A stretch of 53,120 nucleotides of DNA, from NCBI RefSeq assembly GCF_003334255.1, contig NZ_QOWU01000036.1; one strand, 5' to 3'. The stretch comes from Escherichia coli. Lineage in GTDB: Bacteria; Pseudomonadota; Gammaproteobacteria; Enterobacterales; Enterobacteriaceae. Numbering within the stretch: the first letter of the stretch is position 1; each line of letters begins with the position of its first letter. Below the pieces are notes generated by a model. It saw nothing but the letters and a program-made list of their open reading frames with translations, had not been told where the DNA came from and searched no databases. Positions 21,007-21,773 of this stretch are shown here, piece after piece. The position numbers and the translations under genes were made by a program.

Positions 21007-21049
21007 ACCTTTTAGGTGCTTTTTCATTGCTGTAATTAACCTTTTAGGT
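21007..21049 (+). promoter_or_regulatory. MqsA operator palindromes in mqsRA promoter
   Basis: Two copies of ACCT-TTT-AGGT (about 21007-21017 and 21039-21049), the known MqsA recognition palindrome, 30-70 nt upstream of mqsR. Confidence 0.8.
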
Positions 21050-21079
21050 TATAACTAAAGTAACAGGGAGGCGGGGGTT

Positions 21080-21376
21080 ATGGAAAAACGCACACCACAT
21101 ACACGTTTGAGTCAGGTTAAAAAACTTGTCAATGCCGGGCAAGTTCGTACAACACGTAGTGCCCTGTTAAATGCAGATGAGTTAGGTTTGGATTTTGATG
21201 GTATGTGTAATGTTATCATTGGATTATCAGAGAGCGACTTTTATAAAAGCATGACCACCTACTCTGATCATACTATCTGGCAGGATGTTTACAGACCCAG
21301 GCTTGTTACAGGCCAGGTTTATCTTAAAATTACGGTAATTCATGACGTACTGATCGTCTCGTTTAAGGAGAAGTAA
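21080..21376 (+). CDS. mqsR: Toxin MqsR (mRNA interferase)
   Basis: 98-aa ORF MEKRTPHTRLSQVKKLVNAGQVRTT...; toxin gene precedes antitoxin. Confidence 0.95.
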   Translation: MEKRTPHTRLSQVKKLVNAGQVRTTRSALLNADELGLDFDGMCNVIIGLSESDFYKSMTTYSDHTIWQDVYRPRLVTGQVYLKITVIHDVLIVSFKEK

Positions 21377-21377
21377 T

Positions 21378-21773
21378 ATGAAATGTCCGGTTTGCCACCA
21401 GGGAGAAATGGTTTCTGGCATTAAAGATATTCCATACACCTTCCGTGGACGAAAAACAGTATTGAAAGGTATCCACGGTTTATATTGTGTCCATTGCGAA
21501 GAGAGCATCATGAATAAAGAAGAGTCAGATGCTTTCATGGCGCAAGTAAAGGCATTTCGGGCTTCGGTGAATGCCGAAACAGTGGCACCTGAATTTATAG
21601 TGAAGGTTCGAAAAAAGCTCTCTCTTACCCAAAAAGAGGCAAGCGAAATTTTTGGGGGAGGTGTAAATGCGTTTTCGCGTTACGAAAAAGGCAATGCCCA
21701 ACCTCATCCTTCCACAATCAAACTTTTACGTGTTCTGGATAAGCATCCAGAACTATTGAATGAAATCCGTTAA
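21378..21773 (+). CDS. mqsA: Antitoxin MqsA (zinc-binding N domain plus HTH-XRE domain)
   Basis: 131-aa ORF MKCPVCHQGEM...CVHCEE (Cys4 zinc site) and C-terminal HTH; 1-nt gap after mqsR. Confidence 0.95.
   Translation: MKCPVCHQGEMVSGIKDIPYTFRGRKTVLKGIHGLYCVHCEESIMNKEESDAFMAQVKAFRASVNAETVAPEFIVKVRKKLSLTQKEASEIFGGGVNAFSRYEKGNAQPHPSTIKLLRVLDKHPELLNEIR

Follow-up and report, generated by a model that had tools for sequence, protein, structure and literature searches.

The closest described system to the locus analysed here is the mqsR-mqsA toxin-antitoxin operon of Escherichia coli K-12. In this system, MqsR is a small endoribonuclease of the RelE fold that cuts mRNA mainly at GCU, leading to arrest of translation and growth, and MqsA neutralises MqsR by binding it through an N-terminal zinc domain. 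A dimer of MqsA binds with its C-terminal HTH domains to a pair of ACCT-N3-AGGT palindromes overlapping the promoter of the operon and thereby represses transcription, and excess MqsR removes MqsA from the DNA and does not serve as a co-repressor. Additional mqsA transcript comes from two promoters within mqsR that are not regulated, which explains how antitoxin is in excess despite the toxin-first order of the operon. Reviews of the system (PMC4803016, PMC3920265) describe the GCU/GCA specificity, the DNA clamp, and the destabilisation of the MqsA-DNA complex by MqsR. The same reviews and Brown et al. 2009 (PMC2791442) describe MqsA as a fully folded antitoxin that binds MqsR via the zinc domain and leaves the active site uncovered, and PMC8808172 reports that degradation of MqsA by ClpXP depends on zinc occupancy and oxidation.

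A second described relative is MqsRAC from E. coli C496_10, which protects against phage T2 (Vassallo et al. 2022, PMC9519451). MqsRAC shares with the locus examined here the names of its toxin and antitoxin and the order of their genes (PMC9519451).

The mqsR and mqsA genes and their identity with K-12

The window, by which we mean the whole 53,120-base stretch of E. coli DNA that was analysed, contains mqsR and mqsA on one strand, where a single nucleotide separates the mqsR stop codon from the mqsA start codon, as read from the ORF listing of 20700-22100 (Table 1). This is a toxin-first bicistronic layout in which mqsA lies immediately 3′ of mqsR. The two reading frames have the lengths that the initial annotation of this DNA had given, 98 aa for mqsR and 131 aa for mqsA, and the interval that it had delimited, 21007-21773, runs from the first base of the distal operator palindrome through the end of the mqsA stop codon.

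Table 1. Positions of the mqsRA features and of other annotated elements in the window
Feature	Position	Strand	Description
mqsRA cassette	20878-21804	+	927 bp, between ygiV stop codon and ygiS upstream region; from junction comparison with strain 25POL
Terminator-like hairpin after ygiV	20916-20934	+	G+C-rich hairpin and T-rich tail; -10.9 kcal/mol, z = -2.8; just after ygiV, inside cassette
Distal MqsA operator	21007-21017	+	ACCT-TTT-AGGT, exact match; = U00096.2 3166629-3166639 (PMC4894380)
Probable operon promoter pRA	21027-21055	+	TTGCTG, 17-nt spacer, TATAAC
Proximal MqsA operator	21037-21051 (core 21039-21049)	+	TAACCT-TTT-AGGTTA, perfect 15-nt palindrome; = U00096.2 3166595-3166609 (PMC4894380)
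Shine-Dalgarno of mqsR	21065-21071	+	AGGGAGG, 8 nt 5′ of mqsR ATG; read directly
mqsR	21080-21376	+	ATG start, 98 aa; RelE-fold endoribonuclease toxin; K56, Q68, Y81, K96 present
Likely pA2 -10 hexamer	21214-21219	+	TATCAT; placed by the published 111-nt start spacing (PMC6918082)
Likely internal promoter pA1	21303-21330	+	TTGTTA, 16-nt spacer, TAAAAT; 3′ part of mqsR; promoter scan
Shine-Dalgarno of mqsA	21365-21370	+	AAGGAG, within mqsR end; read directly
mqsA	21378-21773	+	ATG start, 131 aa; antitoxin and repressor; N-terminal Cys4 zinc domain, C-terminal HTH-XRE
Intrinsic-terminator-like hairpin after mqsA	21779-21805	+	11-bp stem ending in T run; -12.8 kcal/mol, z = -3.3
FMN riboswitch (RF00050)	4906-5054	+	120.9 bits; upstream of ribB, as expected for E. 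coli
ES173 sRNA match	33040-33103	-	between dkgA and yqhD
REP-type repeats, naRNA4 family	38814-39010		between exbD and yghA
REP-type repeats, naRNA4 family	49923-49999		between hybG and yghU

Both proteins match PDB entries from end to end with 100% identity: the 98-aa protein matches chain B of 3HI2, deposited as 'Motility quorum-sensing regulator MqsR', and the 131-aa protein matches 2KZ8_A, 3GN5_A, and 3O9X, deposited as MqsA/YgiT. In Pfam, the toxin matches MqsR_toxin (PF15723, 6.1e-35, residues 5-97) and the antitoxin matches MqsA_antitoxin (PF15731, 8e-56, residues 1-131), with HTH_3 at residues 76-117. The antitoxin also scores 146.7 bits against NCBIfam TIGR03830, the type II TA system antitoxin MqsA family, where the cutoff is 61.8, and it matches the YgiT zinc-finger domain TIGR03831. 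MqsR has no family match in NCBIfam and no model match in PADLOC (PADLOC-DB v2.0.0), and it is therefore recognised via Pfam and PDB only. These absences are library gaps and not counter-evidence, because the Pfam and PDB matches are full.

Brown et al. 2009 (PMC2791442) found that K56, Q68, Y81, and K96 of MqsR are needed for toxicity and that C3, C6, C37, and C40 of MqsA are the zinc ligands, and all eight of these residues are present in the two proteins of the window. The GCU trinucleotide occurs once in mqsR, where 3.5 occurrences are expected from composition, and three times in mqsA, where 4.5 are expected; neither shortfall is significant, and this mild avoidance in the mRNAs of the module was accordingly left out of the evidence. 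MqsA also has N97 and R101 in its HTH domain. These two are reportedly the residues with which the domain reads bases.

Bases 20876-21842 are the same, base for base, as in E. coli K-12 MG1655, and they are also identical to strain HS, in which RefSeq annotates mqsR and mqsA at this place. More widely, the window aligns with MG1655 3,136,580-3,186,000 (reverse complement) at 99.98% identity over 49,421 bases, with nine substitutions and one 1-bp indel in 49.4 kb (positions 17380, 18604, 19289, 22030, 23557, 34539, 37507, 41835, 44234, and 52722). Five of these differences are non-synonymous, namely qseC M179I, qseB S170P, ygiS D42A, yqhC G45E, and gss S541N, where the MG1655 residue is given before the position and the residue of the window after it. 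The difference nearest to the module is ygiS D42A at 22030, which lies outside the cassette of Table 1. The gene order qseC, qseB, ygiW, ygiV, mqsR, mqsA, ygiS, parC is also that of K-12. As a separate observation, two of the non-synonymous changes fall in the QseBC two-component system, which adjoins the module.

From these comparisons, we conclude that the locus is almost certainly the K-12 form of mqsR-mqsA, a type II toxin-antitoxin operon of the E. coli chromosome, and that it is fully intact. No observation speaks against this identification. The initial annotation had described the pair as a well-known MqsR/MqsA system whose antitoxin carries a Cys4 zinc domain and an HTH, and had proposed the catalytic residues of MqsR and the zinc cysteines of MqsA as checks; all of this stood, with a K-12 reference allele for which structures are deposited, and neither reading frame has an internal stop. 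The identity of every sequence element of mqsRA is established in the present analysis, and what is said of structures, zinc binding, operator binding, autorepression, and internal promoters comes from the literature on the identical sequence. Cleavage specific for GCU, neutralisation by MqsA, and autorepression are shown in the literature for the identical K-12 alleles and would be expected of the copy in the window as well.

A decayed or inactivated copy, with broken reading frames or mutated operators, is the kind of alternative that has precedent, since such copies exist, as in strain 203740, where IS1 lies in mqsR. Against this reading, the frames are full-length, the palindromes are exact, the key residues are present, and 20876-21842 equals MG1655; the chance that this locus is such a copy is negligible, and we reject it. 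The intact mqsRA operon is an already known system, among the best-characterised toxin-antitoxin modules, so its occurrence here carries little weight beyond correct annotation. It serves as a positive control for the scan, as an intact system with the right boundaries.

Operators, probable promoters, and terminator-like hairpins

The 53,120 bases of the window contain two exact copies of the 11-mer ACCTTTTAGGT and no more, both on the + strand (21007-21017 and 21039-21049), with 32 bases from the start of one core to the start of the other. With one mismatch permitted, these are still the only two sites in the window. In dinucleotide-preserving shuffles, the mean number of exact matches by chance was 0.02, and none of 100 shuffles contained two copies. 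The operators of the mqsRA promoter published by Soo & Wood 2013 (PMC4894380) are U00096.2 3166595-3166609 and 3166629-3166639, and these intervals map exactly onto 21037-21051 and 21007-21017 when a constant offset of 1978 between U00096.2 and NC_000913.3 is used, an offset that was itself inferred from the fit; both lengths and the 34-bp spacing are reproduced. The two ACCT-TTT-AGGT palindromes that had been reported upstream of mqsR as intact are thus exact copies at published operator coordinates, and neither is altered.

The sequence TTGCTG (21027-21032), followed after 17 nt by TATAAC (21050-21055), is the probable operon promoter pRA, placed by eye and by comparison with homologues. The TATAAC hexamer comes directly after the proximal palindrome, and the proximal operator occupies the spacer of pRA right up to the -10 hexamer, an arrangement by which repression could work through occlusion. 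The Rahnella and Rouxiella homologues are arranged in the same way, with a perfect TATAAT immediately next to the proximal palindrome. A consensus scanner missed pRA because its -10 hexamer ends in C and does not have the final T.

In MG1655, pRA is weak and repressed by MqsA, and the constitutive promoters pA1 and pA2 inside mqsR transcribe mqsA alone (Fraikin et al. 2019, PMC6918082). The transcription starts of pA1 and pA2 are 111 nt apart, and each lies 8 nt downstream of its promoter (PMC6918082). The only sigma-70-like site called in 20800-21950 is that at 21303-21330, and its position agrees with pA1 of PMC6918082. If the pA1 start is taken 8 nt past this promoter, then moving back by 111 nt leads to a base 8 nt after the TATCAT at 21214-21219, which fits pA2.

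Two terminator-like hairpins flank the operon (Table 1). The hairpin just after ygiV, which was picked up by a terminator scan, probably insulates the mqsRA promoter from read-through out of ygiV.

A strain-variable cassette between ygiV and ygiS

The mqsRA genes lie in a cassette that is carried by 2283 of 5426 complete E. coli genomes (42%), where a carrier is a genome in which at least 80% of 20876-21842 is covered. In strain 25POL, which is mqsRA-negative, ygiV and ygiS are adjacent, and GGGAA stands in place of the 927 bases 20878-21804. The mqsRA-negative genomes among the matches listed all align only from window position 21805 on (query base 930). The cassette starts two bases past the stop codon of ygiV and contains the hairpin at 20916-20934, and it ends one base short of the 3′ end of the terminator-like hairpin of mqsA at 21779-21805. 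No flanking direct repeats were seen at the cassette boundaries in the junction comparison with 25POL. The G+C content of the cassette is 41%, compared with 50.5% in the window, and we infer a horizontal origin for these 927 bp. Used as a strain marker, the cassette puts the host, a close relative of K-12, within the 42% of sequenced E. coli that carry mqsRA.

Several further observations concern the same cassette and its surroundings. In E. coli strain 203740, a clinical isolate, IS1 lies inside mqsR of the same cassette (NZ_CP025913.1 417571-419395), and mqsR is annotated there as two pieces that flank the IS1 transposase, making this a natural knockout of the toxin with the antitoxin intact. 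The cassette is also found at 99.8% identity at 55811-56739 of NZ_MG591698.1, a 353-kb record classed as an E. coli plasmid, and another match in the plasmid collection is a 4.9-Mb record that is evidently a chromosome filed among plasmids. Strain 25POL has an Hcp-family type VI secretion gene and a hypothetical gene between mdaB and ygiZ (332-1524 of its locus); these genes are absent from K-12 and from the window, where the corresponding gap is at about 17095-17412. This gap, some 4 kb away from the mqsRA cassette, is a second place that varies between strains. Directly 5′ of the cassette, ygiV (20393-20875, + strand) is annotated as an AraC-family or repressor protein, and its score of 39.8 bits against the SbmC DNA gyrase inhibitor family NF007451, which is below the cutoff of 179, indicates a GyrI-like domain.

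All of the K-12-annotated genes that lie in the window are intact. At its ends, bases 1-77 and 53044-53120 are exact inverted copies of each other, and these 77 bases are the end of IS1, with 100% identity to thousands of plasmid records annotated as IS1 transposase. A length of 77 nt is a typical assembler k-mer overlap. With IS1 ends on both sides, the window looks like a whole assembly contig that was interrupted by a copy of IS1 at either end. On the left, IS1 cuts short a yqiI-like fimbrial ORF (56-328, - strand); on the right, it lies between gss and pitB, near MG1655 3,136,580; and both IS1 sites are empty in MG1655. The fimbrial usher gene yqiG (1095-3608, - strand) is an intact ORF of 837 aa in the window. 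In K-12 MG1655, yqiG is a pseudogene interrupted by IS2, and the host is on this basis a close relative of K-12 and not K-12 itself.

Physiological role and comparison with known systems

Modules related to the one in the window are present in the plasmid collection at 66-73% DNA identity in Rahnella, Rouxiella, Pectobacterium, Yersinia, Pseudomonas, Pandoraea, and others. We examined four of these plasmid homologues (Rahnella pRAHAQ02, Rouxiella, Pectobacterium, and Pseudomonas pMPC6-328K), which are 54-68% identical in protein sequence to MqsR/MqsA of the window and in which all ten residues K56/Q68/Y81/K96, C3/C6/C37/C40, and N97/R101 are invariant. Like the module in the window, the plasmid modules have the toxin first, the genes one base apart, a toxin of 98 aa, an antitoxin of 131-133 aa, and upstream ACCT-N3-AGGT palindromes that are usually paired 31-34 bp apart. 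Unlike it, they are located on plasmids and vary in the operator centre (TTT, CAA/TTG, or ATT/AAT); in addition, the Pectobacterium module has a small extra ORF between the palindromes and mqsR, and the Pseudomonas module has one palindrome instead of two. The Pectobacterium and Rouxiella plasmid modules adjoin anti-restriction genes.

The physiological role of MqsRA is disputed in the literature between persistence, stress response, and a selfish addiction cassette. Earlier studies tie MqsRA to persistence, biofilm, bile-acid tolerance, and global regulation (PMC3920265, PMC4803016). In contradiction to that earlier work, Fraikin et al. 2019 (PMC6918082) could confirm none of these links at native expression: mqsRA did not influence biofilm, oxidative stress, or sensitivity to bile salts, and MqsA did not act as a global regulator. 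A reading that we hold tentatively, at somewhat less than an even chance, is that the pair is a working toxin-antitoxin system of no use to the host, that is, a selfish, horizontally acquired addiction cassette that would be kept for the cost of its loss and not for any help in persistence or in surviving stress. Such a cassette would be expected to look much like what is described above, being compact at 927 bp, low in G+C, equipped with its own promoter and terminator, present in only 42% of complete genomes and cleanly missing from its site in the others, and related to modules on plasmids of several genera beside anti-restriction genes, and the finding in PMC6918082 of no stress, biofilm, or regulatory phenotype points the same way. 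The persistence, biofilm, and bile-acid phenotypes reported in several of the earlier studies argue against it. This reading concerns the physiological role only and is compatible with the molecular mechanism of MqsR/MqsA. The cassette has the same boundaries throughout the 42% of complete genomes that carry it. A different proposal, that it is a mobile unit that is repeatedly gained or lost at the fixed ygiV-ygiS site without repeats or a recombinase and is in addition kept for a real selective role, such as chaperone-free phage exclusion, and not by pure addiction, strikes us as very improbable.

The initial annotation had also called mqsRA the only recognisable module of defence or persistence type in the window. 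This statement stood, as neither PADLOC nor Rfam recovered another such module, with the qualification that defence is not established for the two-gene form. The 57 other proteins of the window (those of all K-12-annotated genes within it, together with yqiG, yqiH, and the yqiI-like ORF that is truncated) gave no PADLOC match except a weak generic metallophosphoesterase match for cpdA, and MqsA itself gave only a weak HTH-level match to RmrA (2.3e-5). MqsR, too, is missed by PADLOC, and by this catalogue the window therefore has no defence system. A search of the window with Rfam at gathering thresholds gave no type I toxin-antitoxin RNA, and the only matches were the FMN riboswitch, ES173, and the REP-type naRNA4 elements. 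The mqsRA genes are recognisable as a toxin-antitoxin pair and not as a catalogued defence system.

The possibility that mqsRA here provides anti-phage defence by arresting growth on infection, in the manner of MqsRAC, has the phage T2 result and the shared gene names and order to recommend it. Unlike the module in the window, MqsRAC includes a SecB-like chaperone as its third component, on which its MqsA depends for the neutralisation of MqsR (PMC9519451), and no chaperone gene of this kind is present at the locus. Within the cassette, the mqsA stop codon is followed by only 31 bases (21774-21804), which hold the terminator-like hairpin, and no ORF lies in the part of the cassette that remains after mqsA, up to its boundary at 21804. 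The gene that comes next, ygiS, encodes an OppA-like periplasmic binding protein (NF007287, 1289.7 bits). In addition, neither the toxin nor the whole module matches a PADLOC model, and nothing in the phage collection matches the cassette. We therefore consider an anti-phage function of this kind to be very unlikely. The locus is not the tripartite MqsRAC, because the chaperone gene is absent, and that assignment was rejected.

Among described systems, the MqsR/MqsA module of E. coli K-12 (YgiU/YgiT, b3022/b3021) is the one with which the locus agrees throughout, having the same proteins, promoter, operators, spacing, terminator, and neighbours and no difference within the module. More distant systems share parts of this design. 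MqsR has the RelE fold in common with the toxin of RelE/RelB, and K56/K96/Y81 of MqsR match K52/R81-R83/Y87 of RelE (PMC2791442). HigB/HigA likewise has the toxin gene first, and the C-terminal part of MqsA is weakly similar in sequence to the HTH domain of Vibrio HigA-2 (E = 5e-4). In contrast to RelB and HigA, MqsA is fully structured and zinc-binding, binds DNA with its C-terminal part, and leaves the active site of the toxin uncovered, and in contrast to the RelE and HigB modules, MqsR destabilises repression instead of enhancing it.
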